Part shown: piece by piece, positions 9,535 to 42,780 of the stretch
How positions within the stretch are numbered: the stretch's first letter is position 1
How the letters are laid out: each line of letters begins with the position of its first letter
Assembly: GCA_965216255.1 (NCBI GenBank)
Contig: OZ244148.1
Location: 66,091 to 130,090, forward strand
DNA length: 64,000 nucleotides
Direction: 5' to 3'
Source: Rhodothermales bacterium
Lineage (GTDB): Bacteria > Bacteroidota > Rhodothermia > Rhodothermales > Bin80
Translations under genes and position numbers: made by a program
The notes under the pieces: generated by a model
Seen by the model: only the letters and a program-made list of their open reading frames with translations
Databases searched by the model: none
Told to the model about the DNA's origin: nothing

Positions 9535-12500
9535 CTATGCCGCCTTGTTTTTGTCAGCTTGCCGTGCCTTCTGCCAATGATGAGGCAAGAGGTCAGCTAC
9601 GCGCCTGGCCGGATGCGTCGGGATGCGCTCGAACACGTCCGTGAGCCACTCCTGGGGATTGATACCGTGTAGCTTGCACGTGCCAAGTAGCGAATAGACC
9701 ACGGCTGCCCGCTGGGCCGCATCATGTGATCCCGCGAACAGGTAATTCTTGCGGCCGATAACCAACGGCCGCAGGGCATTTTCAATGAGGTTATTGTCCA
9801 GCTCCACGCGCCCCTCATCCAGGTATCGGGTCAGCCTTTTCCAAAGGCCGAGCGTATAGTTGATCGCCTGGCCCCAAGGACTCTTGGGCAACCCCCCGTT
9901 CGCCTCCAGCCAGGGCTTCAGCGCTTCCAGTACAGGCCGGGCCTCTTCCTGACGTACCTCGCGCCGACGTTCCGCACTGGCACCCTCCTCTCGCAGCCTG
10001 CGCTCTATGGCGTAGAGTCGCCTGATCTTTGTCAACACGTGCTCGGCCTTCTCCGGTTCGTAGCTACGACAGTCGTAGAACTTGCGTCTCGCATGCGCCA
10101 TGCATCCGTAGACCGTCATAGACGGATGCGCATCGAAGACGTTGTAGGCCACATACCCGTTCGTCTGCAACGTTCCCGCATACCCACCCAAGAACGCCAC
10201 CGGACCTGCACGGGCACGGCTCTTGCGATACTCCATCACAAACAGCTTCTGCTCCGGAGTGTGGTACACCCAGTAAAAACCCCGATGGGTCTTGCCCTTC
10301 TTCTTTCGATCCTGGACCTGGATACGCGTCTCATCCGCCTGCAGATACCCGCTTAAGAGCGCCTCCTGCTTGAGTGCATCATACAGCGGCCCAAGGTGCC
10401 ACGCCGACTGCGCTATCCAGCCTCCCAGCGTGGACTTGGCAATTTCAATGCCTTCCCGCCGGAAACGCTGCTGCTGCCGGTACAGGGGCAAGTGGTCACA
10501 GTACTTGTTAACCACCACATCGGCCAACAATCCCGGTCCGGCCATGCCCTTGTCCACCAGCCGCGGAGGCAACTCGGCGATGATGACGCCGCTGTCCTCA
10601 TCGGTCGGGTTCACGTACTTGGGGCGATGAATCTCGACCACCTTTATCATGCTGGGCACGATCTCCAGGTACTGCGTCTTCACCATGCCGATGCAAATGA
10701 GACCTGTCGTGTCCTCTTCAGGCTGGATTACGATCGTCTCGCGGGGCAGGTGATCCGGCAGATCCTCGAAGTCCAGACGCCGCTTGGCCTTGCGCCGCTT
10801 CCGCTTCGGCTGATCCGTCTCGGGCTCGGGCGGCAGGGGCACCTCGACCTCCATGTCGTCAAACAAGAGGCCCTGCTGCGCCTCCGGCCCCAGTACATAC
10901 CTTTCGCTCCTGGAGCCAAAGAGCAGGCGGAGGGCTTCAGCCAACTGTTTGTCCTTGCTCTCCAATTTCACCTGCAGCCGGCTGTTCTCTTCGCTCAGCT
11001 GATTGATTACCTCGGACAGGTAGAGTCGACGGGCGGCGCGTTACTCCCATTAGGAGCACGTTTCCGCCCGCCGCTCATCAAACCGGACGTGCAGAATTAC
11101 CGCATCCGGCTTTCAGACAAGATCATGTTTTCGCCCACGGAAGGCCCTTGGTCGTTGGCTCAAGGCATATCAAGCCATACTTCTTGTATAGCTCTTCGTG
11201 TGGGAAGCGCGCCCACCCCCCGGACTGAACCTTGTGCTTGCGACAGAGCCACTGGCGAATCCGCTTCTTCATGTGTGCATCTATGCCTGCATAGGCGGGA
11301 TTGACTTGTCCAAGTCGGAAGTAGTTGGCCCATCCGGTCGATAACCAGTTAAGGCGTGGTACCATCTCCTCTATGGACAGCAGTCCGTGCCTTGCCGCCG
11401 TTTGCTCACTGATCCTGCGGCATATGCTCTGGACACTCTTCTTGCTCGGGCGAGTCCCTATATAGGATCCTCTGCCGCCCGGACGAAAGTTGCGCCCAAT
11501 CCGGTACCCAAGGAACTCAAACGGTTCTTCGGGGCACCGGACGCATCGGGTCTTCCTTGCGTTGACCGGGAGTTTCAGCCGTTGCATTATGGTCTCCACC
11601 GCTTCCAGCATCGCTGTACCATCGGCCTTTCCGAGTACCACAAAATCATCGGCGTAGTTCACGATCGACGCTTGGAAGCGCCGGGCATAGCCCAGCAGCT
11701 TCCAGGCAATGAGAAAACGGCGCATGTAGATGTTGCTCAGCAAAGGAGAGATTGGCGCGCCTTGCGGCGTACCCTTTCCTTCCTTCCGAGCCCGGTTCGT
11801 CAGGCGTTTGCCTGCCTTACCGTCATCTTCCACTACCGGCATCACCAGCCATGACTTGATGAGTTCGAGCATCCGACCATCGCTGATGCGACGCGCCAGA
11901 GACTTCATCATCTTGTCATGCGGTATCTCACCAAAGTAGTTCGACAGGTCTGCATCAACCACTTCCCGGCGGCCCGTATTTACGAGCCTGTGGACGCGAT
12001 TGACCGCTTCCTGTGCGCCACGTCCCTTCCGATAGGCATATTGCTCCTCTTGTAAATCCGCTTCAAAGATCGGCTCCAGCACCAGCATGGCCGATGTCTG
12101 CGCGACCCTGTCACGAATACAGGGAATGCCTAACGGCCGGAACTTGCCTGGCTGCTTCTTCGGGATCAGTACCTGACGTACCGCACGCGGTTTGTACGTA
12201 CCCTCCCTTAGATCCCGCGCCAGTTCCCCCAGCCATCGATTTATGCCGTGCGCTTCAATGTCTCGAAAGGTCTCTCCATCCACACCGGCACTGCCGCCGT
12301 TACAGCGTACTTGTTGCCAGGCTGCGAACAAGAAATCCTTCCTCCACACTTTGTCACACAATGCATGGAAACGACGCTTGGGGTCTTCCTTCGCTTTGAC
12401 ATGTAATACGCGCTGGAGGTCCCGAACTGATTCTGATCCTGTTAGACTTGCGTCAGTAACCATTGCCTTTCCCCCTTTGCGTATTGCTCTTGAATGAGGG

Positions 12501-15500
12501 TCCCTTTCCTCGACGAGCATTACCCCGCGTCACAGGTACTACGGACCCATCCGCCACCCTGACGGCCCAATCTGTCCCTTGCGGGAAATCGGTTGGCTTA
12601 CGTGTGCCTCCGGCAGGGCTTCCCGTGTTGCTACTTTTCCCATCTTGCATGCATGCCAGTGCCACTACCCCGGCGGAAGTAATCTGGTGCTTGTGTCGTT
12701 CTCTTCCCAGACTACCGGCGGCCTTCCCCTTACCAACGGAGGGTCGGCTTCCGCATTGCATGTTTCGAGGCCTGCTCGGCATTCACTACGCGTTCCGGCC
12801 TGCATGCTCGCTGAATCGCCTAAGCGACCCTTTACCAAAGTGCTTCAGCTATCGCGGTAGGCCCCGGGTTTCCCCGGGGCCCCCGCACAGATCCGGACGT
12901 GCCCGCTAAGGCATCCGGCTCCTCCCTCAGGTCGCGCCGCCGCGCATGACGTTAATGGGCCGGCTAACCAACCCATAGCCGTAACCGAACCATCCCATGT
13001 GACACACGAAGTCCGGCTCTGCGTCCGTAGAGTCGGCGGGAGGCGCACCTGCCTTAGGATCCGGTGGCTTGTCCGTCGCTTTCGCTCCGGGCCGCAGTCC
13101 GGCTTCCCTAACCGTGTTTCCTCCCGCCGCTCACCGAACCGGGCGTGCGGCACTACCGCACCCGGCTCTCCAGGCGGATCATGCAACTCGCACTCGGACA
13201 ACGGCGTCGCCCCATGGAGCTTCTCCTGTTCAAAGACTTGCACGGTCCCTGTTTCCACTCCATGACTTGAGTCCGGTGATCATCAGGCCTGTTTACGCCC
13301 TGATAACACCCCGTGGCGTGCCTAGCATGCCACATGGCTCCTTCACTTTCGCATGTGATGCCGCCGAGGTCTCCGACCATTTACCGGTTTAGTAGGTCTC
13401 TGCCAATGCCGTGGCCTTTCCCTCTACGAACATCGCTCCGCACCTGCGGCCCCTTTCCTCCACGGGCATTACCCCATCTCTACGGTACTACGGGCCACTC
13501 CGCCACCCTCTCGGCCCGGCCTGACCCTTGCGGGCTTCCGGTTGGTGTGTGCTACACCGCCGTCAGGGCTTCCATCGATCGGGATAGGTGGGGGCCTCAC
13601 GGCCCCCACCCCCCCACACCACCGTGCGTACGGGTCCGTACACGGCGGTTCAATGGACTTGAGCAAACCGACTTGGGTGCCAGGGCCACCAGGCCGCTAC
13701 GTGCCGGGAGTTCGGATTCGGGTTGCGCCGTGCGAACTTCGGTCCCTTCCCCACGGGCACCGCCGGATTCACCGGGGCTGTCCCACGCAAAAGGCAGCGT
13801 TAGCTGGATTTTCTGCCGCATTGCTCGCATGAGCTTGCCGTCCTACTATCCCTGTCCATTGTTCGGGCCTTCGTCGGCTAAGCCGACTACTATGCCCTCT
13901 GCTGACTTCTGCGTTGCGGTCACGTGCCTTACGACACGTTCAGTCCGGCTTAGCCGGACACAACGCAGATCTCCCAGGGTAAGACCAACCGCCTTCCCCG
14001 CACACCTGCCGAATCTACCACCCCGACGCATAGATGACGCGGACTTTGCGATAACCGGCTCGCTCGTCCGATCGGGTAGGCCTCGTATTCGGTTCTTGTT
14101 CATCAGGTCGCGGGTTTGCTACACGCTTCCTTCAGACCCCGCCTCACGACGACGCCCTTGCGCTTCGCTAATCCTTCGCCGCCATCTGGCTGGATAGAGG
14201 ACTTGCACCTCCAAGCTGTTGATCATGCCTGGCACACCGGTAGGCCCCGGGTTTCCCCGGGCCCCCCGCACAGATCCGGACGTGCCCGTTAAGGCATCCG
14301 GCTCCTCCCTCAGGTCGCGCCGCCGCGCATGACGTTAATGGGCCGGCTAACCAACCCATAGCCGTAACCGAACCATCCCATGTGACACACGAAGTCCGGC
14401 TCTGCGTCCGGCGTGTGTTGGGTTGTCCGATTTCCCCTCGGGTGCGACGCTTCGCTCCACCAACTCCGCCGCACGATCCTCCGCGCTTTGTTCGCCGGCT
14501 TCATCGCTACTATCATCGCATCTGACTCCTCCTCGCCGTTCATCCTCCGCTCGGCAATGCCTTGGCTTTGGCGGCCCCGCCCTAAGCGCTGGGCAGCGAG
14601 GAGGCCTCCCAGGTCCCAACCTTGTACGTACATACGTGCCTGAGTTCTTGGACGCCGCGGAGCCCTCTTGAACCTCACCATATCGGTCCAATCAGTATTG
14701 CCTTCAGCCAACACGAGGACTTCGGCACTCCGAACAATGGTCCTTTCGGCGCTCATTAGCTCTGCCCATATGCACCCCTGCCGACGCTTCGCCCGTTCCC
14801 TCACGAGAACGACCGCACGGCTTGGGGAGAGATATGGATTGGTTATATCCTTTACCACAGAGGACTTACACCTCCTGTACTTGGCCAGTTAGCCTGGCGC
14901 ACCGTGTTGCCACTCCTTCCATCTTGCATGCATGCCAGTGCCAGTACCCCGGCGGAAATAGACCGGTGCACGTGTCGTTCTCTTCCCGGTCTACCAGCGG
15001 CCTTCCCCATGACACCGGAGGGTCGGCTTCCGCATTGCCCTTTTCGAGGCCTGCTCGGCATTCACTGCGCGTTCCGGCCTGCATGCTCGCTAAATCGCCT
15101 AAGCGATCCTTTTGCCAAAGTGCTTCAGTCCATGTTGTTACCTCCATAAACCGCCTTGGTCGCTACCAACTGAAACGACAGCTGTTGCGTGGGATTCGCA
15201 CCCACAAGGAAGAAGCGCCTTATCACGGCGCACGGTGTGTGTTGGGTTGTCCGATTTCCCCTCGGGTGCGACGCTTCGCTCCACCAACTCCGCCGCGCGG
15301 TCCTCCGCGCTTTGTTCGCCGGCTTCATCGCTACTATCATCGCATCTGACTCCTCCTCGCCGTTCATCCTCCGCTCGGCAATGCCTTGGCTTTGGCGGCC
15401 CCGCCCTAAGCGCTGGGCAGCGAGGAGGCCTCCCAGGTCCCAACCTTGTACGTACATACGTGCCTGAGTTCTTGGACGCCGCGGAGCCCTCTTGAACCTC

Positions 15501-16146
15501 ACCATAGCGGTCCAATCAGTTTTGCCTTCAGCCAACATGAGGACTTCGGCACTCCGAACAATGGTCCTTTCGGCGCTCATTAGCTCCGCCCATATGCGCC
15601 CCTGCCGACGCTTCGCCCGTTCCCTCACGAGAACGACCGCACGGCTTGGGGAGAGATATGGATTGGTTATATCCTTTACCACAGAGGACTTACACCTCCT
15701 GTACTTGGCCAGTTAGCCTGGCGCACCGTGTTGCTACTTTCCCCATCTTGCATGCATACCAGTGCCACTACCCCGGCGGAAGTAATCTGGTGCTTGTGTC
15801 GTTCTCTTCCCAGACTACCGGCGGCCTTCCCCTTACCAACGGAGGGTCGGCTTCCGCATTGCATGTTTCGAGGCCTGCTCGGCATTCACTACGCGTTCCG
15901 GCCTGCATGCTCGCTGAATCGCCTAAGCGACCCTTTACCAAAGTGCTTCAGCTCATGTTGTTACCTCCATAAACCGCTTTGGCCGCTACTAGCTGGAGCG
16001 ACAGTTACTAGGTGGGATTCGCACCCACTAGGGAAAAGCGCCTTATCACGGCGCACGCTGGCGTTCTGCTGAAGCACCGCGGCAAGCTGCGCACGGAAGG
16101 TCTCAACATCCGCAGAAGAGAGGGAGGAATGTGCTTCGGGCTGCAT
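9535..16146 (-). CDS. tnpC: IS66 TnpC transposase, exons 16146-16057 and 11019-9535, split by group II intron nest
   Basis: FGSRSE, HLPRE, KYCDHLPLYRQ, ADET, CMAHARRKF, DNNLIENALR. The joined exons are in frame (524 aa) and match the uninterrupted copy near 32050-32070. Confidence 0.9.
11123..12463 (-). CDS. ltrA: Group II intron reverse transcriptase/maturase, no endonuclease domain
   Basis: AGVDG, RPLGIPCIRDRVAQ, DADLSNYF, GTPQGAPISPLLSNIY, YADD, FEFLGY, GWANYF. Start at 12463 is inferred from a purine-rich RBS (track ORF starts at 12520). Confidence 0.95.
   Translation of the reverse strand: MVTDASLTGSESVRDLQRVLHVKAKEDPKRRFHALCDKVWRKDFLFAAWQQVRCNGGSAGVDGETFRDIEAHGINRWLGELARDLREGTYKPRAVRQVLIPKKQPGKFRPLGIPCIRDRVAQTSAMLVLEPIFEADLQEEQYAYRKGRGAQEAVNRVHRLVNTGRREVVDADLSNYFGEIPHDKMMKSLARRISDGRMLELIKSWLVMPVVEDDGKAGKRLTNRARKEGKGTPQGAPISPLLSNIYMRRFLIAWKLLGYARRFQASIVNYADDFVVLGKADGTAMLEAVETIMQRLKLPVNARKTRCVRCPEEPFEFLGYRIGRNFRPGGRGSYIGTRPSKKSVQSICRRISEQTAARHGLLSIEEMVPRLNWLSTGWANYFRLGQVNPAYAGIDAHMKKRIRQWLCRKHKVQSGGWARFPHEELYKKYGLICLEPTTKGLPWAKT
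12624..12850. repeat. 227-nt direct duplication of intron A1 domain I (second copy 15727-15953)
   Basis: Direct comparison shows about 2 mismatches; the copies flank intron B1. Confidence 0.9.
13574..14902 (-). mobile_element. ORF-less group II intron B2 (pieces 14902-14238 and 13577-13574; 669 nt), nested in A2
   Basis: Near-identical to B1. Flanks GCAACACG|GGAAGCCC rejoin as in the uninterrupted A3 near 22350. Confidence 0.88.
13578..14237 (-). mobile_element. ORF-less class C (IIC) group II intron, 660 nt, innermost
   Basis: 5' GTGTGCCAGGCATG; short IIC-type DV GAACCGCCGTGTACGGACCCGTACGCACGGTGG; 3' CTATCCCGAT. Lies just after a GC-rich hairpin. Confidence 0.85.
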
Positions 16147-16209
16147 GATTGTTCAACAACGTCTGCACATGCATTGTTCCCCGTTTCCACATACTATTTA
16201 TCCCGATTT

Positions 16210-16545
16210 TCAGCTCTTAACCGCATACCGGCGCCGGTATTTTACGGACTTCAGCGACACTCCCTCCAGTAACATCACCATCTGCGTCCACGTCGGCATA
16301 TCCTCTTTCGGCAACTCAAACGTACCCGCTTCAAGCCTTTTGTAAAACAAGGCGAAGCCGTTTCGGTCCCACGAAAGCGCCTTCAGATGGCTCCGCCTCC
16401 TGTTGACGAACACAAAGATGTCCCCCGACATGGGATCCCGCTTCATGCCGCTTTTCACCAAGGCGCACAGGCCGTCAAAGCTCTTGCGCATGTCGGCCGG
16501 CGGCCGGTAAAAGAAATACCGGTGCGAAGGCCCCAGTCCGATCAT
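16210..16545 (-). CDS. tnpB: IS66 TnpB accessory protein
   Basis: DMRKSFDGL..FVFVNRRR..WDRNGF..YKRLEAGTF. Confidence 0.95.
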   Translation of the reverse strand: MIGLGPSHRYFFYRPPADMRKSFDGLCALVKSGMKRDPMSGDIFVFVNRRRSHLKALSWDRNGFALFYKRLEAGTFELPKEDMPTWTQMVMLLEGVSLKSVKYRRRYAVKS

Positions 16546-16841
16546 GACTGCACCAGCTGCGCCAGGTACGAGGCAGATACCGGCGCCAAGAGGCGCACGC
16601 GTATCCCGCCCGGGTACATGATCTCCACTTGCGCCTCTTCACCTCCCACGGGTCTGCCAATCTCCACAAAGGCGCCGCTGTCCACTGCCGCAGCCTCCAG
16701 GCGATACTTCCGACGCCAGTAAAACAGCTGCCCATACGAGATGCCGCGCTCGGCACAGAACGCTGCAGCGGTCTGGCTGCTTTCTTCATACTGTTCCATG
16801 AGCGGAAATATTTCTTCCGCCGTACGTCTGGGCTGTCTCAT
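16542..16841 (-). CDS. tnpA: IS66 TnpA (HTH)
   Basis: AAFCAERGISYGQLFYWRRK; ATGA overlap with tnpB. Confidence 0.9.
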   Translation of the reverse strand: MRQPRRTAEEIFPLMEQYEESSQTAAAFCAERGISYGQLFYWRRKYRLEAAAVDSGAFVEIGRPVGGEEAQVEIMYPGGIRVRLLAPVSASYLAQLVQS

Positions 16842-17489
16842 GCCATCCAGGCTTTGAGTCCTCGGGTCTATGAGTAATCTCCCGAGAAATCGTCACCTTA
16901 TCCAGATGGGTTTCACCGCACGCTTACGGCGCAGACGCGTACGAATCACCTGCACCAACTGGTAAGCCAGGACCGTGATGAATAGATGGCCCTCCGCGCG
17001 CCGGCCTGTGGAATGATAGATCGGTCGCAGTCCGAGTTCCGACTTCAGGGACCGGAACACCGCTTCCAGATCGGTCAGCATCACATACGTGCGCCAGAGC
17101 TCTTCCGCGGTGAACTCCATCTCGTTGCTGCGCAGGCAATAGACGCCCGGATCGGTCATCAACGCGGGTGCTTTCGGCGTCTTTGTCCACGTGATGGACT
17201 GGGCCCGCTTGCCGTCCTCATCCGTCTCCACTTCTATCTCGTAATGCTGTCCGATGCCGCTGAAGCTCTGCTTCAATCGGCCGATACGTTCCCTTATGAG
17301 GTCGATGCGCTTGTGCGTCTTCGGCCGGGCAAGCCCCTCGGAAAGCTTGCCGAGGGCCTCATCCCGGTAGCCCCCCGGGTTTTCCCCGGGGGCCCCGGAC
17401 AGATCCGGACGTGCGCGCTAACGCATCCGGCTCCTCCCTCGGGTCGCGTGCCACCGCATGACGTTAGAGAGTGGACAGGCCACTCCCAG

Positions 17490-18900
17490 GAGAAACTGCC
17501 ATATCTTGGGTCTGTAGAATGCCGCGGCGTATCTTTGTGGAGTACCCATCAATCGCCCTAGACGGGCATATCCGGACTACATCGTATGACAGACTCAACA
17601 GAATCCAACGTACACTCACTGGTTACCCGTGAGGAGGCACTCAGCACCCTGGATGACTTGGTGCGCAGCTCCGCCCGGCGCATGCTTCAGGCAGCGCTCG
17701 AGCGGGAAGCCGACGACTACGTGAATGCCCATGCACACCTGCGGAATGAGCACGGCCACCGAGTCGTCAAACGCAATGGCCACCATCCGCAGAGAGAAAT
17801 CCTCACGGGTGCGGGCCCGCTAGCGATCCAGCGGCCCCATATCCGTGACCCTCGAACAGGGCATACCTTCACCAGCGCCATACTGCCGCGCTATATGCGC
17901 CGCAGTCCGTCGATAGATGCACTCATTCCGGCCTTGTACCTGCGGGGAGTTTCGACCAACGACTTTGCTCTGGCCCTGGAGGCCATACTTGGCCCGCAAG
18001 CTGGCAACCTATCGCCATCGTCAATCAGCCGACTCAAGGGGGCTTGGCTGGAGGAATACCGGCAATGGAATAAGCGGGACTTGACGGGCAAACGGTATGT
18101 TTACCTCTGGGCTGACGGGTTATACTTCAATGTCCGCATGGGAAACGAGCGTCCGTGTATGCTTGTTATTATTGGAGTTACGCCCGATGGAAGGAAAGAA
18201 CTCGTAGGACTTCTGGACGGAGAGCGGGAAAGCAGGCTGTCCTGGAAGGAGCTATTGTTGGATATCAAACAACGAGGCTTGGACGTAGCGCCTAAGGCTG
18301 CCACAGCAGACGGAGGCCTAGGCTTCTGGGCTGCGTTAGAAGAAGTATATCCCTCCACGCTACAACAGCGATGCTGGGTGCACAAGACAGCCAACGTGCT
18401 CAATAAGCTGCCCAAGAAGCTGCAGGGGTCTGCGAAAGAGAGGCTCCGTGGCATCTATACGGCACCGTCCAGGAAGGATGCCCTGAAGGCACTCGATACC
18501 TTCGAGAATCTCTTCGGAGGCGCCTACGAGAAGGCCGTCACCTGTCTGCGCAAGGATCAAGAGGAGCTCTTAACCTTCTACCAGTTCCCGCCCGAACACT
18601 GGGTTCATCTTCGGACTTCGAATCCCATTGAGTCCACGTTTGCGACCGTACGAAAACGTACACGGCAAACCAAGGGATGCGGCAGCCGGGACGCGACACT
18701 GATGATGGTTTACAAACTAACCCGGGAAGCGGAGAAACGCTGGCGGAGGCTGACTGGATCGCAGCTGCTCATCCGTGTGCTGGAAACAACCCCACAAGAG
18801 TACAGCGTAGAAGTAGACAAACAAGCCGCCTAATTCTAATTCCACAATTCCACAATCCCATGCCGCGGCATTCTACAGACCCAAGATATGGCAGTTTCTC
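17490..18900 (+). mobile_element. IS256-family element copy 1 (1411 bp)
   Basis: ~39-bp perfect TIR GAGAAACTGCCATATCTTGGGTCTGTAGAATGCCGCGGC; 9-bp TSD CACTCCCAG. Confidence 0.95.
17586..18833 (+). CDS. IS256-family transposase
   Basis: RNGH, LYLRGVST, YLWADG, ADGGLGF, QRCWVHK, RTSNPIES. Confidence 0.95.
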   Translation: MTDSTESNVHSLVTREEALSTLDDLVRSSARRMLQAALEREADDYVNAHAHLRNEHGHRVVKRNGHHPQREILTGAGPLAIQRPHIRDPRTGHTFTSAILPRYMRRSPSIDALIPALYLRGVSTNDFALALEAILGPQAGNLSPSSISRLKGAWLEEYRQWNKRDLTGKRYVYLWADGLYFNVRMGNERPCMLVIIGVTPDGRKELVGLLDGERESRLSWKELLLDIKQRGLDVAPKAATADGGLGFWAALEEVYPSTLQQRCWVHKTANVLNKLPKKLQGSAKERLRGIYTAPSRKDALKALDTFENLFGGAYEKAVTCLRKDQEELLTFYQFPPEHWVHLRTSNPIESTFATVRKRTRQTKGCGSRDATLMMVYKLTREAEKRWRRLTGSQLLIRVLETTPQEYSVEVDKQAA

Positions 18901-19374
18901 CACTCCCAGCCGTAACCGGTCCATCCCCTGTGACACGCAAAGCCCGGCCCTGTGTCCGGAACGTGCAGGGATCTGCGGTTTCCCCTTGGGTGCGGTCCTT
19001 CGCTCCACCAACTCCGCCATGTGGTCATCCACACTTTGTTCGTCGGCTTCACAGCTAATACTACCGCATCTGACTTCTCTCCGCCGTTCGTCCATTGATC
19101 GGCTACTGCCTTCGCTTTGGCGGCCCCGCCCTTGGCGCTGAGCAGCGGAGAGACCTCTCAGGTCCCAACCTCGTACGTACATGCGTGCGTGGGTTCTCGG
19201 ACGCCGCAGAGCCCTCCCGCACCTCACCAAAGCGGTGCAAGCAGTGTTGCCTTCAGCAATCGAGAATGCTTCGGCACTCTGAACCACGAATTTTTCGGCG
19301 CTCAATAGCCCTACCCACATGCGCCCCTGCCGACGCTTCGCCCATTCCCTCGCGGGAATGACCGCACGGCTCGG

Positions 19375-21536
19375 CCCAAGTTTACCATTGTGCTTCATAA
19401 CAGGTTGTAAAGTAGAGACTTGAAAATTGTTCTGGCACAACAAATGGCCACCAAGTGAGGTTTTATGCCTTAGGTCATATGATCGTCTTGTGCATGGCCA
19501 AGGGCAGTGGATCGATGCACAAGGCATCGTAAATGGCCCTTAGTTCCATATCCGGCTGCGAGCTGGTGCGGACATGGAGTGTGCGTGCGTCCTTGCGCTC
19601 GAAGATGCTGGTCGTGCGAACCTGACGACGAAGGATCCTCCTGAGTGTCGTCCAGCTGAAGCGTAGTCCTTTCTGGCGCAGACGCGTACGAATCACCTGC
19701 ACCAACTGGTAAGCCAGGACCGTGATGAATAGATGGCCCTCCGCGCGCCGGCCTGTGGAATGGTAGATCGGTCGCAGTCCGAGTTCCGACTTCAGGGACC
19801 GAAACACCGCTTCCAGATCGGTCAGCATCACATACGTGCGCCAGAGCTCTTCCGCGGTGAACTCCATCTCGTTGCTGCGCAGGCAATAGACGCCCGGATC
19901 GGTCATTATCGTGCCCGCTTTCGGCGTCTTTGTCCACGTGATAGACTGGGCCCGCTTGCCGTCCTCATCCGTCTCCACTTCTATCTCGTAATGCTGTCCG
20001 ATGCCGCTGAAGCTCTGCTTCAATCGGCCGATACGTTCCCTTATGAGGTCGATGCGCTTGTGCGTCTTCGGCCGGGCAAGCCCCTCGGAAAGCTTGCCGA
20101 GGGCCTCCTCGAATCTTTCCGCTTTCTGCTTCACCTTGGCCTCTTCCATCGCCATGCGGGACCGGGATCGGCAACAGAGCCGTACCTCGTCGTCTGCCTC
20201 CTCCCGGTACACCTCGACGTCACTGCCCGAGGCCGTCTGAAGAGCCTCGGCCTGCTGCTCATCAAAATGCTTCCTGCGCTCTCTTGATACCACGATGTAG
20301 CGGTAGCCCTCCTCTCGCAGCCAGTCTATGCGGTCCTGTGTGGCAATGCCCCGATCCATCACCACACGTGCGTTCTTGGGCGTCTCCAGGGACTCCAGCA
20401 TCTCCTTGAGCGTGGACGCTTCGTTTACGTTGCCCTTGAAGACTTGGCTACGACGCACGAACCCGCTGCCGTCCACTACAAGAGCCAGCGTGAGCAGCAC
20501 GCAGTCACTGCGACGCTCCTTCGAGCGTCCGTACTTGGCCTTGTCGATGCTCTTGCCACTGCCTTCCAGGAAGCTGTTGGTCAGATCATAGAGCGCGATC
20601 GTGGGCTCCAGATCAAACAGGTCCAGCGCCCGTGCAAAGAGGTGGTCCTCTATGGCCTTGCGGTGTTTGTGCAGCATGTCGCTGGCCCGGTACAGCTGCA
20701 TGTCGGCCATCTTCTCGAAGTTGCAGCCCAGAAACTCGTCCAGGCCACTGGCAGAGGCCAGCCAACGCTTCGTGGCATGTTCGCTGGCCGGCTCGGCCAG
20801 ACGGCCTATGATGGAGCCCGTGGCCGCATGCCGGAGGCCTCGCGTGATGCCAAGCTTCTCGAAGAGCTCATCCATGCCCAACTGCTCCATGGCCCAGAGC
20901 CCCACATGTTCTACACCCACCGTGCGGGGCCGGACCGTTTTGAGCGAGTGGACATCCACATGGTGCCATTCGCGCGGCGGCGTCTCGCCCTTGCCCTCGG
21001 TCACGGCTACCGCCTTGCGCGCACTCAAAAGTTCTGCAATGCGGTGGGCCTCCTCTTCCACGACGGCAGGAACGCCCATGGGTACGAGCTGGCCCTTGAG
21101 CAGTGCCTCAATCCGGTTGCAGAGCGCACGCCAGTAGCGTTTGTCGATGCGGAAGTGGGCACCGAGATTGAGCAGGGTCTTCTGCCGGACCTTGCCCTCT
21201 ATGCGTTCGCCGTGGCAGAGCCGAAAGGAATAGTAGCGTGTAGCGTTGTCGGTGGTATGGGTAAGCGATCGTCGGATATACATAGGGGGAAGATAGGGCC
21301 GGGAACCACTGCCCGCAATAGCCATCCATAATTTATGGCACAACATTCGTATTCCAGCTTCTGTGAATCTCAAAAATGGTGCGTTGGTGGGATCTTGTGG
21401 GGTTCTGGTGGGGCCAAGCACCAGAAATTCCGGCAAAACAGGCCTCAAGTGGGGGCTCATCCCTAAAAAGCTCTCGAAATAATTAACTGCGATTATTGCC
21501 GACCTTCAAATTCAGCCGCCAAATGGTAAAGATGGG
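19375..21536 (-). mobile_element. IS1634-family element copy 2 (2162 bp)
   Basis: TIRs CCCAAGTTTACC / GGTAAAGATGGG; 4-bp TSD TCGG. Confidence 0.92.
19475..21283 (-). CDS. IS1634-family transposase
   Basis: MYIRR start, RQKTLLNLG, LYDLTN, GRSKERRSD, VVMDRG, EAVFRSLKSELGLRPIYH. Confidence 0.92.
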   Translation of the reverse strand: MYIRRSLTHTTDNATRYYSFRLCHGERIEGKVRQKTLLNLGAHFRIDKRYWRALCNRIEALLKGQLVPMGVPAVVEEEAHRIAELLSARKAVAVTEGKGETPPREWHHVDVHSLKTVRPRTVGVEHVGLWAMEQLGMDELFEKLGITRGLRHAATGSIIGRLAEPASEHATKRWLASASGLDEFLGCNFEKMADMQLYRASDMLHKHRKAIEDHLFARALDLFDLEPTIALYDLTNSFLEGSGKSIDKAKYGRSKERRSDCVLLTLALVVDGSGFVRRSQVFKGNVNEASTLKEMLESLETPKNARVVMDRGIATQDRIDWLREEGYRYIVVSRERRKHFDEQQAEALQTASGSDVEVYREEADDEVRLCCRSRSRMAMEEAKVKQKAERFEEALGKLSEGLARPKTHKRIDLIRERIGRLKQSFSGIGQHYEIEVETDEDGKRAQSITWTKTPKAGTIMTDPGVYCLRSNEMEFTAEELWRTYVMLTDLEAVFRSLKSELGLRPIYHSTGRRAEGHLFITVLAYQLVQVIRTRLRQKGLRFSWTTLRRILRRQVRTTSIFERKDARTLHVRTSSQPDMELRAIYDALCIDPLPLAMHKTII

Positions 21537-22678
21537 TCGGGAAATGATGTGGATCGGTTACTTCCTTGATCATAGAGGACTTCCACCTCCTGTACTTGGC
21601 CAGTTGGCCTGACGCACCTCGAATCTTTCCGCTTTCTGCCTCACCTTGGCCTCTTCCATCGCCATGCGGGACCGGGATCGGCAACAGAGCCGCACCTCGT
21701 CGTCTGCCTCCTCCCGGTACACCTCTACGTCACTGCCCGAGGCCGTCTGAAGAGCCTCGGCCTGCTGCTCATCAAAATGCTTCCTGCGCTCTCTTGATAC
21801 CACAATGTAGCGGTAGCCCTCCTCTCGCAGCCAGTCTATGCGGTCCTGTGTGGCAATGCCCCGATCCATCACCACACGTGCGTTCTTGGGCGTCTCCAGG
21901 GACTCCAGCATCTCCTTGAGCGTGGACGCTTCGTTTACGTTGCCCTTGAAGATCTGGCTACGACGCACGAACCCGCTGCCGCGCGTTACAAGAGCCAGCG
22001 TGAGCAGCACGCAGTCACTGTGCGCCGTGGAAAGGCGCTTCTTCCTTGTGGGTGCGAATCCCACTCAATATCTGTCGTTCCAATTGGTAGCGGCCAAAGC
22101 GATTCATGGAGGTAACGATATGGATTGAAGCACTTTGGTAAAAGGATCACATTGGTGATTCAGCGAGCATGCAGGCCGGAACGCGCAGTGAATGCTGAGC
22201 AGGCCTCGAAACATGCAATGCGGAAGCCGACCCTCCGGTGACAAGGGGAAGGCCGCTGATAGTCCGGGAAGTGAACGACACGTGCACCGGGCTATTTCCG
22301 CCGGGGTACTGGCACTGGCATGCATGCAAGATGGAAGGGGTAGCAACACGGGAAGCCCTGTCGGCGGTGCAGCACACACCAACCGGAAGCCCGCAAGGGT
22401 CAGGCCGGACCGAGAGGGTGGCGGAGTGGCCCGTAGTACCGTAGAGACGGGGTAATGCCCGTGGAGGAAAGGGGCCGCAGGTGCGGAGCGATGTTCGTAG
22501 AGGGAAAGGCCACGGCATTGGCAGAGACCTACTAAACCGGTAAATGGTCGGAGACCTCGGCGGCATCACATGCGAAAGTGAAGGAGCCATGTGGCATGCC
22601 AGGCACGCCACGGGGTGCTATCAGGGCGTAAACAGGCCTGATGGCCAACGGACTCAAGGCATGGAGTGGAAACAGGGA

Positions 22679-24089
22679 GAGAAACTGCCATATCTTGGGT
22701 CTGTAGAATGCCGCGGCATGGGATTGTGGAATTGTGGAATTAGAATTAGGCGGCTTGTTTGTCTACTTCTACGCTGTACTCTTGTGGGGTTGTTTCCAGC
22801 ACACGGATGAGCAGCTGCGATCCAGTCAGCCTCCGCCAGCGTTTCTCCGCTTCCCGGGTTAGTTTGTAAACCATCATCAGTGTCGCGTCCCGGCTGCCGC
22901 ATCCCTTGGTTTGCCGTGTACGTTTTCGTACGGTCGCAAACGTGGACTCAATGGGATTCGAAGTCCGAAGATGAACCCAGTGTTCGGGCGGGAACTGGTA
23001 GAAGGTTAAGAGCTCCTCTTGATCCTTGCGCAGACAGGTGACGGCCTTCTCGTAGGCGCCTCCGAAGAGATTCTCGAAGGTATCGAGTGCCTTCAGGGCA
23101 TCCTTCCTGGACGGTGCCGTATAGATGCCACGGAGCCTCTCTTTCGCAGACCCCTGCAGCTTCTTGGGCAGCTTATTGAGCACGTTGGCTGTCTTGTGCA
23201 CCCAGCATCGCTGTTGTAGCGTGGAGGGATATACTTCTTCTAACGCAGCCCAGAAGCCTAGGCCTCCGTCTGCTGTGGCAGCCTTAGGCGCTACGTCCAA
23301 GCCTCGTTGTTTGATATCCAACAATAGCTCCTTCCAGGACAGCCTGCTTTCCCGCTCTCCGTCCAGAAGTCCTACGAGTTCTTTCCTTCCATCGGGCGTA
23401 ACTCCAATAATAACAAGCATACACGGGCGCTCGTTTCCCATGCGAACATGGAAGTATAACCCGTCAGCCCAGAGGTAAACATACCGTTTGCCCGTCAAGT
23501 CCCGCTTATTCCATTGCCGGTATTCCTCCAGCCAAGCCCCCTTGAGTCGGCTGATTGACGATGGCGATAGGTTGCCAGCTTGCGGGCCAAGTATGGCCTC
23601 CAGGGCCAGAGCAAAGTCGTTGGTCGAAACTCCCCGCAGGTACAAGGCCGGAATGAGTGCATCTATCGACGGACTGCGGCGCATATAGCGCGGCAGTATG
23701 GCGCTGGTGAAGGTATGCCCTGTTCGAGGGTCACGGATATGGGGCCGCTGGATCGCTAGCGGGCCCGCACCCGTGAGGATTTCTCTCTGCGGATGGTGGC
23801 CATTGCGTTTGACGACTCGGTGGCCGTGCTCATTCCGCAGGTGTGCATGGGCATTCACGTAGTCGTCGGCTTCCCGCTCGAGCGCTGCCTGAAGCATGCG
23901 CCGGGCGGAGCTGCGCACCAAGTCATCCAGGGTGCTGAGTGCCTCCTCACGGGTAACCAGTGAGTGTACGTTGGATTCTGTTGAGTCTGTCATACGATGT
24001 AGTCCGGATATGCCCGTCTAGGGCGATTGATGGGTACTCCACAAAGATACGCCGCGGCATTCTACAGACCCAAGATATGGCAGTTTCTC
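22679..24089 (-). mobile_element. IS256-family element copy 2 (1411 bp)
   Basis: Same TIR; 9-bp TSD AAACAGGGA. Confidence 0.95.
22746..23993 (-). CDS. IS256-family transposase
   Basis: One amino acid different from copy 1. Confidence 0.95.
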   Translation of the reverse strand: MTDSTESNVHSLVTREEALSTLDDLVRSSARRMLQAALEREADDYVNAHAHLRNEHGHRVVKRNGHHPQREILTGAGPLAIQRPHIRDPRTGHTFTSAILPRYMRRSPSIDALIPALYLRGVSTNDFALALEAILGPQAGNLSPSSISRLKGAWLEEYRQWNKRDLTGKRYVYLWADGLYFHVRMGNERPCMLVIIGVTPDGRKELVGLLDGERESRLSWKELLLDIKQRGLDVAPKAATADGGLGFWAALEEVYPSTLQQRCWVHKTANVLNKLPKKLQGSAKERLRGIYTAPSRKDALKALDTFENLFGGAYEKAVTCLRKDQEELLTFYQFPPEHWVHLRTSNPIESTFATVRKRTRQTKGCGSRDATLMMVYKLTREAEKRWRRLTGSQLLIRVLETTPQEYSVEVDKQAA

Positions 24090-24130
24090 AAACAGGGACC
24101 GTGCTAGTCTATGAACAGGAGAAGCTCCAT

Positions 24131-26300
24131 CCCAAGTTTACCATTGTGCTTCATAACAGGTTGTAAAATAGCAACTTACAAATTGTTCTGGCACAACAAA
24201 TAGCCACCAAGTGAGGTTTTATGCCTTAGGTCATATGATCGTCTTGTGCATGGCCAAGGGCAGTGGATCGATGCACAAGGCATCGTAAATGGCCCTTAGT
24301 TCCATATCCGGCTGCGAGCTGGTGCGGACATGGAGTGTGCGTGCGTCCTTACGCTCGAAGATGCTGGTCGTGCGAACCTGACGACGAAGGATCCTCCTGA
24401 GTGTCGTCCAGCTGAAGCGTAGTCCTTTCTGGCGCAGACGCGTACGAATCACCTGCACCAACTGGTAAGCCAGGACCGTGATGAATAGATGGCCCTCCGC
24501 GCGCCGGCCTGTGGAATGATAGATCGGTCGCAGTCCGAGTTCCGACTTCAGGGACCGGAACACCGCTTCCAGATCGGTCAGCATCACATACGTGCGCCAG
24601 AGCTCTTCCGCGGTGAACTCCATCTCGTTGCTGCGCAGGCAATAGACGCCCGGATCGGTCATTATCGTGCCCGCTTTCGGCGTCTTTGTCCACGTGATGG
24701 ACTGGGCCCGCTTGCCGTCCTCATCCGTCTCCACTTCTATCTCGTAATGCTGTCCGATGCCGCTGAAGCTCTGCTTCAATCGGCCGATACGTTCCCTTAT
24801 GAGGTCGATGCGCTTTTGCGTCTTCGGCCGGGCAAGCCCCTCGGAAAGCTTGCCGAGGGCCTCCTCGAATCTTTCCGCTTTCTGCTTCACCTTGGCCTCT
24901 TCCATCGCCATGCGGGACCGGGATCGGCAACAGAGCCGCACCTCGTCGTCTGCCTCCTCCCGGTACACCTCTACGTCACTGCCCGAGGCCGTCTGAAGAG
25001 CGAGTGCCCGCTGCTCATCAAAATGCTTCCTGCGCTCTCTTGATACCACAATGTAGCGGTAGCCCTCCTCTCGCAGCCAGTCTATGCGGTCCTGTGTGGC
25101 AATGCCCCGATCCATCACCACACGTGCGTTCTTGGGCGTCTCCAGGGACTCCAGCATCTCCTTGAGCGTGGACGCTTCGTTTACGTTGCCCTTGAAGATC
25201 TGGCTACGACGCACGAACCCGCTGCCGTCCACTACAAGAGCCAGCGTGAGCAGCACGCAGTCACTGCGACGCTCCTTCGAGCGTCCGTACTTGGCCTTGT
25301 CGATGCTCTTGCCACTGCCTTCCAGGAAGCTGTTGGTCAGATCATAGAGCGCGATCGTGGGCTCCAGATCAAACAGGTCCAGCGCCCGTGCAAAGAGGTG
25401 GTCCTCTATGGCCTTGCGGTGTTTGTGCAGCATGTCGCTGGCCCGGTACAGCTGCATGTCGGCCATCTTCTCGAAGTTGCAGCCCAGAAACTCGTCCAGG
25501 CCACTGGCAGAGGCCAGCCAACGCTTCGTGGCATGTTCGCTGGCCGGCTCGGCCAGACGGCCTATGATGGAGCCCGTGGCTGCATGCCGGAGGCCTCGTG
25601 TGATGCCAAGCTTCTCGAAGAGCTCATCCATGCCCAACTGCTCCATGGCCCAGAGCCCCACATGTTCTACACCCACCGTACGGGGCCGGACCGTTTTGAG
25701 CGAGTGGACATCCACATGGTGCCATTCGCGCGGCGGCGTCTCGCCCTTGCCCTCGGTCACGGCTACCGCCTTGCGCGCACTTAAAAGTTCTGCAATGCGG
25801 TGGGCCTCCTCTTCCACAACGGCAGGAACGCCCATGGGTACGAGTTCGAGCTGGCCCTTGAGCAGTGCCTCAATCCGGTTGCAGAGCGCACGCCAGTAGC
25901 GTTTGTCGATGCGGAAGTGGGCACCGAGATTGAGCAGGGTCTTCTGCCGGACCTTGCCCCCTATGCGTTCGCCGTGGCAGAGCCGAAAGGAATAGTAGCG
26001 TGTAGCGTTGTCGGTGGTATGGGTAAGCGATCGTCGGATATACATAGGGGGGAAGATAGGGCTGGGAACCGCTGCCCGCAATAGTCATCCATATTTTATG
26101 GCACAACATTCGTATTCCAGCTTCTGTGAATCTCAAAAATGGTGCGTTGGTGGGAGCTTGTGGGGACTCTGGTGGGGCCAAGCACCATAAATTCCGGTAA
26201 AACAGGCCTAAAGTGGGGGCTCATCCCTAAAAAGATCTCGAAATAAATAACTGCGATTATTGCCGACCTTCAGATTCAGCCGCCAAATGGTAAAGATGGG
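24131..26300 (-). mobile_element. IS1634-family element copy 3 (2170 bp)
   Basis: Same TIRs; 4-bp TSD CCAT. Confidence 0.92.
24231..26045 (-). CDS. IS1634-family transposase
   Basis: Near-identical to copy 2. Confidence 0.92.
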   Translation of the reverse strand: MYIRRSLTHTTDNATRYYSFRLCHGERIGGKVRQKTLLNLGAHFRIDKRYWRALCNRIEALLKGQLELVPMGVPAVVEEEAHRIAELLSARKAVAVTEGKGETPPREWHHVDVHSLKTVRPRTVGVEHVGLWAMEQLGMDELFEKLGITRGLRHAATGSIIGRLAEPASEHATKRWLASASGLDEFLGCNFEKMADMQLYRASDMLHKHRKAIEDHLFARALDLFDLEPTIALYDLTNSFLEGSGKSIDKAKYGRSKERRSDCVLLTLALVVDGSGFVRRSQIFKGNVNEASTLKEMLESLETPKNARVVMDRGIATQDRIDWLREEGYRYIVVSRERRKHFDEQRALALQTASGSDVEVYREEADDEVRLCCRSRSRMAMEEAKVKQKAERFEEALGKLSEGLARPKTQKRIDLIRERIGRLKQSFSGIGQHYEIEVETDEDGKRAQSITWTKTPKAGTIMTDPGVYCLRSNEMEFTAEELWRTYVMLTDLEAVFRSLKSELGLRPIYHSTGRRAEGHLFITVLAYQLVQVIRTRLRQKGLRFSWTTLRRILRRQVRTTSIFERKDARTLHVRTSSQPDMELRAIYDALCIDPLPLAMHKTII

Positions 26301-26659
26301 CCATGGGGCGACGCCGTTGTCCGAGTGCGAGTTGCATGATCCGCCTGGAGAGCCGGGTGCGGTAGTGCCGCACGCCCGGTTCGGTGAGCGGCGGGAGGAA
26401 ACACGGTTAGGGAAGCCGGACTGCGGCCCGGAGCGAAAGCGACGGACAAGCCACCGGATCCTAAGGCAGGTGCGCCTCCCGCCGACTCTACGCGACGCTC
26501 CTTCGAGCGTCCGTACTTGGCCTTGTCGATGCTCTTGCCACTGCCTTCCAGGAAGCTGTTGGTCAGATCATAGAGCGCGATCGTGGGCTCCAGATCAAAC
26601 AGGTCCAGCGCCCGTGCAAAGAGGTGGTCCTCTATGGCCTTGCGGTGTTTGTGCAGCAT

Positions 26660-27176
26660 ATGGTCCACCGAGGCACTTTACAGATACCAATCTGCATTGT
26701 CGGAAAGGTCTATAGACCCTGATCTATTACAAGAGTGCATGCTTCACGGATACTATTATGCTGGAGTCTCATTTATCGACAAGAAGCGATATGAACAGTT
26801 CTTTGGCTCGAGCATTGATCAGGCGAAAATATCGTATGAAAGAGAGCGGGATGCGTATGTCGCTGATCTGGAAAAAGTGTATGCCAAAGATGTTGACGAT
26901 GCCTTCAATGCAACACCAGATATTGAGAAACCTTTCTTTTCGGTCCAAATGGCGTGGACGCTAACTAGATCGTCGAGAGAAAAAGAGAAGGTAGCTAACG
27001 AGGGAAGAATTAAGGCGGAGGTGCAGGTTAGGACACTTGAATCAGAAAGGGATGAAGCGTGGCGAATTCGGAAAAAACGGACCGAAGACCAGGACGCTGC
27101 CGAGCTTAGGAATCTCCAAAATCCTAAACATGTGCGTAAACGTCGCAAACAAGCTAAGAGGCGCAAGAGAAAATGA
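26660..27176 (+). pseudogene. 3' fragment of an unknown gene with coiled-coil and basic tail
   Basis: Lower-GC open frame starting abruptly at the IS1634 truncation point and ending RKRRKQAKRRKRK. Confidence 0.6.
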
Positions 27177-27250
27177 CGTAAGGCTTGGGAGACAGGTTTC
27201 ACGGAATTGATGGTGGTGTGTATACCTGTGGGGGAATATTCCGACTTAGA

Positions 27251-28052
27251 GTAAGCGTCCGGTGACCCACACTATGCGCATGCGTCGTGGGCTTTGATCC
27301 TCGGGTCAAGCAACGTCGGGTAGCCCGGGGGAATTTCACCCCCAGGCTCCCACAGAACCGTACGTGAGACTCTCGCCTCATACGGCTCTTCTCGGCCCAC
27401 CCGGCTACCAATCCAGCCAGCAGCCAGGCCCTTGTTTCTTGAGCGAGGTCCTCCCGCTTTGCGGTTGCCCCGCTCCTTCCACCAACCGAGTCGGCCCCTT
27501 CGCTCCAGTACCATTACAGAACCTTCATCACTACTACGAGCCGATCCGCCCCCGTGGAGCGCATTGGTACTCAATCGCTCGCGGGTTCTCCGCTTGCGAG
27601 TCTCCCTTAGCATCGCCCCGACAGGTTCCCACGTTCCGCATTTAGGCCCAGACCATATTCTCGCCGCCTGTATGCCGGATGCCGATCGGGCCATAAACAG
27701 GCACCTCCCGATCTTGTCCCGGAGCAGAGATGAGACCCCGGTTTTGACATCGTCCATGCACTTCCGACACTTCGTCAGCGGTTCACTTGCGTTCGACTCT
27801 ATGGCCCATACCTGACAGAGTCCTTGCTCCGCCTTTTCCGGGCTCGCTCACTACCGAACCCTTAAAGTCAAGCAGCAGCCGGTGGTTTGCAGCCTCCGCC
27901 TGTACGACGGCTGCGGGGGGCCTTCCCCCATCCTAAATGCAGTCACGCAACACTCAAGCTATGTTAAAGAACAACACCTGCGTGCCACTCGTGGCACACA
28001 ATCTCCTGACCAGCCCTTCACTCACGCACGGTGTGGGTCACCGGACGCTTAC
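27251..28052. mobile_element. IS66-type MITE (117 bp net) interrupted by a group II intron
   Basis: 22-bp perfect TIR GTAAGCGTCCGGTGACCCACAC; no ORF; flanks lack a matching TSD. Confidence 0.8.
27315..27999 (-). mobile_element. ORF-less group II intron D (class D-like, 685 nt)
   Basis: 5' GTGTGCCACG; DV GAGCCGTATGAGGCGAGAGTCTCACGTACGGTTC; DVI ending CTACCCGAC. Confidence 0.85.
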
Positions 28053-28180
28053 CCCCTGCCGACGCTTCGCCCATCTCCTCACGAGGATGACCGCACGGCT
28101 TGGGGAATGATATGGAGCGGTTACTTCCTTCATCACAGAGGAATTCCACCCCCTGTACTTGGCCAATTAGTCTGGCGCAC
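28053..28180 (-). mobile_element. 5' fragment of B-type group II intron (B4), truncated by the MITE
   Basis: GTGCGCCAGACTAATTGGCCAAGTACAGG, homologous to B1-B3; inserted just after IS66 tnpB. Confidence 0.8.
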
Positions 28181-28929: not shown

Positions 28930-29129
28930 GATTCAGCGAGCATGCAGGCCGGAACGCGTAGTGAATGCCGAGCAGGCCTCGAAACGTGCAATGCGGAAAA
29001 GGGCCGGAGCGAAAGCGACGGACGAGCCACCGGATCCTAAGGGCTGGCGCGCCAGGCCCCGACCCTACTGACGAGCGGCGGGCGGAAACGTGCTCCTAAT
29101 GGGAGTAACGCGCCGCCCGTCGACTCTAC
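28930..29129 (+). mobile_element. Remnants of nested A-type group II introns (domain I piece, DVI ending 29068, second DVI ending 29129)
   Basis: 28930-28998 matches A1 domain I; CCGACCCTAC at 29068; 29069-29129 matches the A1 3' end. Confidence 0.75.
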
Positions 29130-42777: not shown

Positions 42778-42780
42778 CCC

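Follow-up and report, generated by a model that had tools for sequence, protein, structure and literature searches.

The closest described counterpart of the elements analysed here is the TeI3/TeI4 set of group II introns in Thermosynechococcus elongatus (Mohr, Ghanem and Lambowitz 2010, PMC2882425). In that genome, copies that lack an open reading frame (ORF-less) are moved by the reverse transcriptases (RTs) of other copies and outnumber their RT-bearing parents, families are defined by exon-binding site (EBS) sequences that match the flanks, and insertion into insertion sequences (IS) and into other introns produces twintrons in which the inner introns are near-identical and the outer ones diverged, with recognition resting mainly on RNA base pairing. 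We describe a similar arrangement in the genome of a Rhodothermales bacterium, centred on a 64,000-nt stretch of contig OZ244148.1 (positions 66,091 to 130,090; hereafter the window), where positions 11020-28181 are occupied by a single RT-bearing group II intron (A1) together with eight copies or fragments, all of them ORF-less, from four families (A, B, C, and D). The two cases also differ. T. elongatus carries 28 introns that descend from one IIB1 ancestor and use EBS1, EBS2 and EBS3, whereas the present genome holds at least 139 full-length copies derived from four RNA types, without a detected EBS2. Unlike in T. elongatus, the RTs lack an endonuclease domain, the nests are deeper, and two families have no intact cognate RT. 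Finally, an assay demonstrated mobilisation in trans in T. elongatus (PMC2882425), whereas here it is proposed from sequence.

Three other systems share individual traits with this genome. Methanosarcina acetivorans contains nests of up to five ORF-less and RT-encoding introns formed by repeated site-specific homing, with other group II introns as the targets (PMC2882425; PMC4424553), and balanced by deletion through homologous recombination (PMC4424553). It is, however, an archaeon with few copies, while the present case is bacterial and shows reciprocal homing between unrelated families as well as tandem arrays. RmInt1 of Sinorhizobium meliloti has an intron-encoded protein (IEP) without an endonuclease domain, prefers the lagging-strand template (PMC8914252), and homes to a site in an IS (PMC4181065); its relatives have divergent target specificities and home into mobile DNA, much as target specificity diverges between related introns here (PMC4181065). 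RmInt1 is autonomous and uses EBS1, EBS2, and EBS3, and the likeness drawn here is one of traits. Tandem integration has been reported for the EcKTE56.groEL intron, a second copy entering upstream of the first and using the first G of the resident as its intron-binding site 3 (IBS3), in an Escherichia coli over-expression assay at one site (PMC12584367, 2025), whereas the arrays described below are natural. Literature searches by subject, rather than by organism name, returned no description of this swarm. Every mechanistic element is already in print, and the case stands out by its scale, its diversity, its missing RTs, and its persistence.

We consider it very probable that the window contains a nest of endonuclease-less group II intron retroelements that spread by RNA-guided reverse splicing, helped by the RTs of other copies. 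The elements are group II introns. All six families recognised in the genome (A to D, and the RT-bearing relatives of A and B, termed ART and BRT) begin with GUGCG or GUGUG (GUGYG) and carry conserved, family-specific 3' ends (..CUAC, ..CGAU or ..CGAC). Rfam models of group II domains D1-D4 and D5/D6 give 12 matches above gathering threshold in the window, all within 13578-28146, and the D1-D4 models that exceed it are RF02003 for A, RF02005 for B, RF02001 and RF01998 for C, and RF01999 for D. Scores against RF00029 (cut-off 40 bits) are above threshold for C and D and below it for A1 (39.5), A2 and A3 (38.1 each), and the B copies (30.5-35), and sub-threshold D5 matches lie at 11020-11114, 12851-12923, 13027-13170, 14234-14306, 17361-17435, and 26348-26491.

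Intron junctions were obtained by reading the minus strand and excising complete elements step by step (de-nesting). This procedure reproduced the junctions that an earlier, sequence-only reading of the window had listed for A1, A2, A3, B1, B2, B3, and D, and returned the same lengths of 878 nt for A2 and A3 and 669 nt for B1 and B2. A3 reaches its length after subtraction of two IS copies together with their duplications of 9 and 4 nt. Uninterrupted, the ORF-less families measure 878 nt (A), 669 nt (B), 660 nt (C), and 685 nt (D). The deepest part of the nest has an IS66 tnpC gene containing A1, which contains B1, which contains A2, which contains B2, which in turn contains C (Table 1), and every copy in the window is hosted by IS66, IS1634, a small element with terminal inverted repeats (TIRs), or another intron. 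B3 was subsequently interrupted by one IS1634 and one IS256-like copy, as was A3.

Evidence for RNA-guided insertion comes from EBS1. The sequence-only reading had proposed that a short loop in each intron differs between copies and pairs with the site of that copy. Across the copies catalogued genome-wide, every hexamer window of each intron was scored for pairing with its own exon positions -6 to -1, using one row per distinct 10-nt flank. The proposed loop ranked first among all hexamers in A, B, and D, where it reached at least 5 of 6 pairs for 19 of 20, 23 of 26, and 5 of 6 flanks, respectively. A scan at any exon offset, from which seven tandem-junction copies were excluded, agrees, with 4.95 of 5 pairs for A (z = 6.1) and 4.78 of 5 for B (z = 5.4). 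When exons were permuted 10000 times among distinct EBS1/IBS1 combinations, with tandem junctions kept and the observed means thereby lowered, the mean pairing of 5.25 of 6 among the four A variants (4.23 shuffled) and of 5.19 among the eleven B variants (3.49 shuffled) was reached in none of the shuffles. The unbiased scan and both permutations bear out the proposed pairing.

Structure agrees with this assignment. In the Rfam consensus structure, CUCGUGUU of B forms the terminal loop of a domain-I hairpin, and local folds put EBS1 (in C, the candidate) in the terminal loop of a domain-I hairpin in A, B, C, and D. The stem below the B loop has exchanged pairs between subfamilies in a compensatory manner (AGUC/GGCU, GACU/GGUC, AGCA/UGCU, GAUU/GAUC, and GGCU/AGUC), and when only B copies with at least 90% identity are compared, just two of 673 windows vary more than that of EBS1. 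Family C has a target that never varies, which leaves it with no shuffle statistic; three of its windows tie in the hexamer scan, and its EBS1 therefore cannot be distinguished from two other equally complementary windows. The loop of C, first given as CGGU, in fact reads UGGUAG and pairs with CUACCG through a U.G wobble.

A second contact involves EBS3, the base N in GGCGUC[N]AAGAAC, which directly follows the helix closing that part of domain I. With tandem copies dropped, EBS3 of B forms a Watson-Crick pair with exon position +1 at 30 of 31 distinct sites, using three letters, and the corresponding column in D does so at 7 of 7 sites. A candidate EBS3 in A pairs at 18 of 19 sites, a figure confounded with the split between A and ART. 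This +1 partner is the EBS3-IBS3 pair of IIB-type introns, and both EBS1 and EBS3 covary with the exons. A third feature lies further upstream in the exon. Targets of B carry a purine tract at -16 to -11 (fractions 0.88, 1.00, 0.82, 0.94, 0.94, and 0.76; n = 17), and targets of A and ART carry C-A-x-C at -15 to -12 (fractions of 0.73, 0.87, and 0.67 for the three specified letters in order; n = 15). Window scans of the introns found no partner for these upstream motifs. The view that lineages were retargeted by EBS1 changes thus needs widening: EBS1 pairing does vary with the site, but EBS1 does not act alone, since EBS3 covaries as well and the upstream motif stays fixed. An internal loop of B about 25 nt 5' of EBS1 (14741-14728 in B2) is as variable as EBS1 itself.

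To place the window in context, the whole genome was catalogued for complete copies by repeated BLAST and excision with both termini checked, and four IS families were catalogued alongside as helpers. Full-length copies number 27 for A, 10 for ART, 63 for B (including subfamilies 74-90% alike), 6 for BRT, 24 for C, and 9 for D, or at least 139 in total, with 123 ORF-less copies and 16 bearing an RT. These counts are lower bounds, because recombinant nests such as A1 stay unresolved; about 170 5' ends and 202 3' ends genome-wide suggest about 170-200 copies. The six families together account for 154,642 nt of matching sequence, or 2.86% of the genome, and an Rfam domain V search gave at least 110 matches at E up to 0.01 among the 150 of 577 candidates that were scored. 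None of the 34 RVT_1 matches in the genome falls in a catalogued A, B, C, or D copy; all lie in ART, in BRT, in a third A-like RT intron, or in broken C- or D-type RT introns. The chromosome is in general unusually rich in repeats for a bacterium, as 229 of 1000 random de-nested positions fall in DNA present at least three times.

Could the ORF-less copies be immobile, either splicing-only or dead remnants whose loops record an ancestral insertion? Such an end is usual for introns deprived of their protein gene. Introns without IEPs are described as having generally lost retromobility, ORF-less ones as rare in bacteria (PMC4424553), and in this genome many copies are truncated or interrupted by IS elements. 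We nevertheless regard this explanation as highly improbable. Copies of A (99.3-100% identical), core B (about 98.5-99.7%), and C (98.5-100%) are near-identical at many different sites, ORF-less copies far outnumber RT-bearing ones, EBS1 is among the most variable windows of otherwise near-identical B copies, and one site is polymorphic for presence of the intron. At that site, which holds the B copy at 953330-953998, a 13,276-nt contig from another study's DNA run spans the sequence on either side but omits the 669 nt of the intron exactly. The contig is about 1.5% diverged, the flanks are single-copy, and the empty site is precise.

The orientation of the introns is biased relative to replication. 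The origin was placed by the minimum of cumulative GC skew, at 2.82 Mb, and by dnaA, at 2.88 Mb. After merging, 67 of 74 intron loci are in the lagging-strand template: the minus strand carries 42 of the 49 that precede 2.75 Mb, and the plus strand carries all 25 that follow it. Because the intron sense strand has leading-strand polarity, the RNA would have entered the lagging-strand template.

All RT genes found encode RVT_1 and GIIM domains without an HNH or other endonuclease domain. ART retains four or five open frames of 456-468 aa, four of them of 465 aa and one shorter, BRT retains four of 546 aa, and the third A-like intron retains one. ART is 83% alike to A over positions 1-457, and BRT is about 70% alike to B over positions 1-550 and 85% over the last 100 nt. 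The expectation that RT-bearing relatives of the ORF-less families exist elsewhere in the genome was accordingly borne out for A and B, through ART and BRT, but for C and D only broken RT genes were found. The C-type RT locus (1698390-1700662) carries one TAG stop between the RT and maturase domains and has a D copy directly upstream. Multiple RT copies with 64-73% identity to that of A1 are present in metagenome-assembled genomes labelled Longimicrobiales, Bryobacterales, Terriglobia, Paracoccaceae, and Dehalococcoidia, which, to judge from sequence similarity, suggests horizontal spread of this RT lineage across phyla.

The choice of targets is a further characteristic of these introns. Among the 139 copies, 91 are hosted by other introns, 10 by the helper IS families, 24 by other DNA present in at least three copies, and 14 by single-copy DNA. 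The claim that all copies sit in mobile elements therefore holds for the window and not for the genome. The predicted enrichment in mobile DNA is nonetheless evident: repeats hold 32 of the 46 distinct sites, where about 26.5% would be expected (the random de-nested positions given above, with the excised elements added back; binomial p = 1.3e-9), and the other 14 are in single-copy DNA. Two sites labelled as intron are IS or other repeats with a tandem or recombinant intron 3' flank, which leaves the 32 unchanged.

The homing network is reciprocal between families. A inserts in B at position 494 (17 copies), and B inserts in A at positions 103 (AACAUG, loop CAUGUU; 15 copies) and 329 (AACACG, loop CGUGUU; 15 copies). 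Of the 24 C copies, 21 occupy domain VI of B or BRT, and BRT lies in A near position 813 in 5 or 6 of 6 copies; a B subfamily also inserts in the BRT ORF, and D in D. Containment reaches four levels and required five rounds of excision. Head-to-tail arrays comprise up to four B copies (1,242,989-1,246,325) as well as A-A pairs and, by analogy, fit the re-insertion seen experimentally in 2025. A 1.5-kb IS, ISx1, is present in 18 full copies, all at the target ..AG|GGCAT(A), and eight of these occupy one position of C (about nt 340, in the domain IV region), always in the orientation of C (for example at 527106-528606 and 759234-760732). Because these eight share a single position, ISx1 specifically parasitises intron C. 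Mobility of a composite of C and ISx1 need not be invoked, since all 18 ISx1 copies are at one target and the eight copies in C are only 97.5% alike.

It might be argued that the introns are kept for the benefit of the host, by throttling the IS66, IS1634, or IS630 transposase or by shaping a defence island. A1 and B3 lie sense in transposase genes, where splicing would be required for transposase synthesis, and the nest is flanked by genes for a STAND-like NTPase and a GmrSD-type restriction enzyme. However, A3 is antisense, several insertions in single-copy DNA are antisense in long open frames, most copies reside in other introns rather than in IS genes, the window's own IS hosts are no longer intact, and intron presence is tied to no host advantage. 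We find this explanation barely credible.

A more serious alternative is that most copies spread as DNA, by riding IS66 and IS1634, by segmental duplication, or by unequal recombination and gene conversion, and that a few old retrohoming events left the EBS1/IBS1 matches as relics. Some DNA-level spread is evident. In A1, intron positions 104-330 are doubled, at 15953-15727 and 12850-12624 on either side of the B1 nest, and this duplication is why A1 is left unresolved by de-nesting; it fits unequal exchange between B copies located at A:103 and A:329. The junction of B1 is likewise recombinant, because its 5' side corresponds to A1:330 (AACACG, with one A.C mismatch to the loop) and its 3' side continues into the A sequence located after AACAUG (A1:104). 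Sites also recur in multi-copy hosts (IS66 three times and IS1634 five times). As the dominant process, however, spread as DNA is improbable. There are 46 distinct sites, and the A and B variants of EBS1 match their own flanks. Inner copies differ far less than their hosts, and without correlation, for A in B (2.6 versus 15.7 differences, Mantel r = 0.05) and C in B (5.0 versus 25.4, Mantel r = 0.11), which fits recent, separate insertions into older introns. The precise empty site, the replication-linked strand bias, and the recurrence of covariation in five other genomes also argue against it.

Several observations weigh against reverse splicing in trans as the source of these copies. First, pairing accounts only in part for the choice of site. 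No hexamer or pentamer window pairs with exon positions -7 to -20 above background, as an EBS2 would, and the internal loop 5' of EBS1, tried as EBS2, scored 4.61 pairs against 4.75 shuffled, with 1773 of 2000 shuffles reaching the observed value. In the de-nested genome, 546 to 2641 perfect EBS1+EBS3 words per lineage are still empty (for example 587 AACACG|G, 599 AACAUG|G, and 1192 CUACCG|C); because hundreds of such words stay empty, an extra site determinant is needed. In D, with three variants, the mean pairing of 5.43 against 4.87 shuffled was reached in 917 of 10000 shuffles and is not significant. Second, divergence of inner and outer copies is correlated for B in A (r = 0.44, p = 0.005), and B copies at 529895 and 1517021 share their 5' flank with the copy at 4826037 but have an A-type 3' flank; this correlation and the recombinant junctions show that some copies spread as DNA. 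Third, part of the enrichment in repeats may reflect purging of harmful insertions rather than targeting. Fourth, the only C-type RT gene has an in-frame TAG in an intron without its 5' half, and the only D-type RT gene is frameshifted. Finally, mobilisation in trans is inferred, as is splicing. Contigs from RNA (metatranscriptome) runs cover the intron and not its flanks, and no exon-exon joint was found at a single-copy site in these contigs. Nor do they prove transcription, since carry-over of DNA from a multi-copy element would give the same result. A joint of an intron 3' end to a 5' end, going back 669 nt (L146, 1530-2198), is present in contigs of an RNA run (X7) and is explained by tandem DNA copies because it also occurs in those of a DNA run (X5); RNA circles may be another source.

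Weighing these points, we retain RNA-guided spread with shared RTs and hypothesize the following mechanism. ORF-less families A to D and their RT-bearing relatives would spread by reverse splicing into DNA, most likely on the single-stranded lagging-strand template at replication forks, after which an RT/maturase from other intron copies would copy the inserted RNA. The target would be read in three parts: a domain I loop of 5-7 nt (EBS1) pairs with exon positions -1 to -6, one base (EBS3) pairs with exon position +1, and an upstream exon motif, constant between lineages, is recognised in addition. Changes in EBS1 and EBS3 would have redirected lineages to new sites, the most productive of which are inside introns and IS elements, where insertion would be of no cost to the cell and the target itself multiplies. 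Recurrent homing and tandem re-insertion, followed by IS hits and by unequal exchange among the copies, may then have produced the present mosaic. Of these steps, we infer splicing activity, the pairing of RTs with RNAs, and the use of replication forks; what the sequences show directly is that the elements are group II introns, that EBS1 and EBS3 covary with the exons, that copies are nested, that targets and strands are biased, and that one site varies in the presence of its intron.

Genomes of the same taxonomic family extend the pattern, with the caution that they are kin and not independent samples. Of 18 other genomes of the family, 12 contain B-like ORF-less elements (640-700 nt, 68-78% alike), whereas none of 12 genomes drawn from the order's remaining families does. 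From 60 loci in five related genomes, 61 copies whose match reached both ends were kept; they add nine EBS1 variants, with a mean pairing of 4.76 against 3.28 shuffled that no shuffle of 10000 reached. Their EBS3 pairs with exon position +1 at 39 of 42 sites, now including A-T pairs, and the purine tract persists at -15 to -11 (0.78-0.93; n = 40 flanks, tandem junctions dropped). These relatives likewise show a C-type intron within domain VI of B, as well as B copies paired in tandem. BRT-like RT genes are present in 11 of the 12 genomes having B-like DNA. In the related genomes G001, G009, and G013, nearly all such genes share in-frame TAA stops (one in G001 and G013, two in G009) but have their full length in other respects; they may be recoded, or may be dead copies that were multiplied in trans.

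Table 1. Features of the intron nest and its IS hosts in the window (window positions, nt; interrupted elements are given by outer bounds, with their own pieces under remarks)
Feature	Coordinates	Strand	Site and remarks	EBS1 and Rfam
A1, RT-bearing group II intron (ART family; 1934 nt uninterrupted)	16056..11020	-	in IS66 tnpC after ..GCCAGC; own pieces 16056-15727 + 12850-11020	GUUGGU 15840-15835
RT/maturase ORF of A1, 465 aa	11123..12520	-	RVT_1 + GIIM, without endonuclease domain	
B1, ORF-less B, 669 nt	12851..15726	-	pieces 15726-15234 + 13026-12851	CAUGUU 15539-15534
A2, ORF-less A, 878 nt	13027..15233	-	inside B1 after ACACC; pieces 15233-14903 + 13573-13027	GGUGUC 15016-15011
B2, ORF-less B, 669 nt	13574..14902	-	inside A2 after AACACG; pieces 14902-14238 + 13577-13574	CGUGUU 14715-14710; RF02005 alignment
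C, ORF-less, 660 nt	13578..14237	-	in domain VI of B2 between CCUACCG and CGAU	candidate UGGUAG 14020-14015; RF02001, RF01998, RF00029
B3, diverged B-type (670-nt type, about 80% to B)	17361..21617	-	in IS1634 after UUCGAG, sense	CUCGAU 19264-19259
A3, ORF-less A	22020..26491	+	antisense in the IS1634 host copy of B3, after GUCACU	GGUGAC 22237-22242
D, ORF-less, 685 nt	27315..27999	-	after GGAGAUU	CAUCUC 27732-27727, exon -1 unpaired; RF01999, RF00029
Host of D, 117-nt element	27251..28052	-	22-nt TIRs	
B-type intron fragment, 5' 129 nt	28053..28181	-	in second IS66 copy after AUGCAUGUG; truncated by TIR element	RF02005 partial
IS66 tnpC, 3' part (DDE_Tnp_IS66)	9535..11019	-	downstream of A1	
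IS66 tnpC 5' part, tnpB, tnpA	16057-16930			
IS256-like element (Mutator-family transposase)	17490..18900	+	inside B3	
IS256-like element, identical inverted copy	22679-24089		inside A3 (1411 nt, 100%)	
IS1634-type element (DDE_Tnp_1, 661 aa)	19375..21540	-	inside B3	
IS1634-type element, second copy	24131-26300		inside A3	
Invaded IS1634 host copy, surviving pieces	16928-17360, 21618-22019, 26492-26660			
A/ART intron fragments (A 129-206, 811-878; ART 1874-1934)	28923..29129	+	beyond nest end	

The small TIR element that hosts D has relatives elsewhere, about 20 other genome copies matching its first 93 nt without interruption. The nest as a whole sits in a defence island, with defence genes at 2763-9134, 29444-31843, and 39199-50828 of the window. 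These encode a STAND-like NTPase of 2123 aa, the GmrSD-type enzyme, and a cluster of an Eco57I-like methylase, an SNF2 helicase, and a DEAD helicase with MZB, which may be DISARM-like. The earlier observation that no intron interrupts the defence genes agrees with the Rfam group II models, which match none of them.

The significance of this genome lies first in scale, as it carries at least 139 full-length copies, nine-tenths of which lack an ORF, against a maximum of 101 introns per genome in a 2022 survey (PMC8919778). It also lies in diversity, with four unrelated ORF-less RNA types, two of which lack an intact RT of their own, and in persistence, since one ORF-less lineage is found across a bacterial family although such derivatives are expected to be rare and short-lived (PMC4424553). 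The genome thereby offers a natural system for studying proliferation after loss of the protein gene, redirection by one or two base changes, and the reach of one RT over foreign introns, and its EBS1/EBS3 guides, with more than 20 natural variants, amount to a table of retargeting rules for an endonuclease-less intron type. More tentatively, and with distinctly less confidence than in RNA-guided spread itself, we raise the possibility that the introns are mainly parasites of one another, that retargeting is modular (a fixed upstream anchor combined with evolvable EBS1 and EBS3), and that C and D are moved by a generalist RT of another class. If true, unrelated introns in a bacterium would here share one apparatus for splicing and mobility, a step often postulated on the way toward spliceosomal introns.

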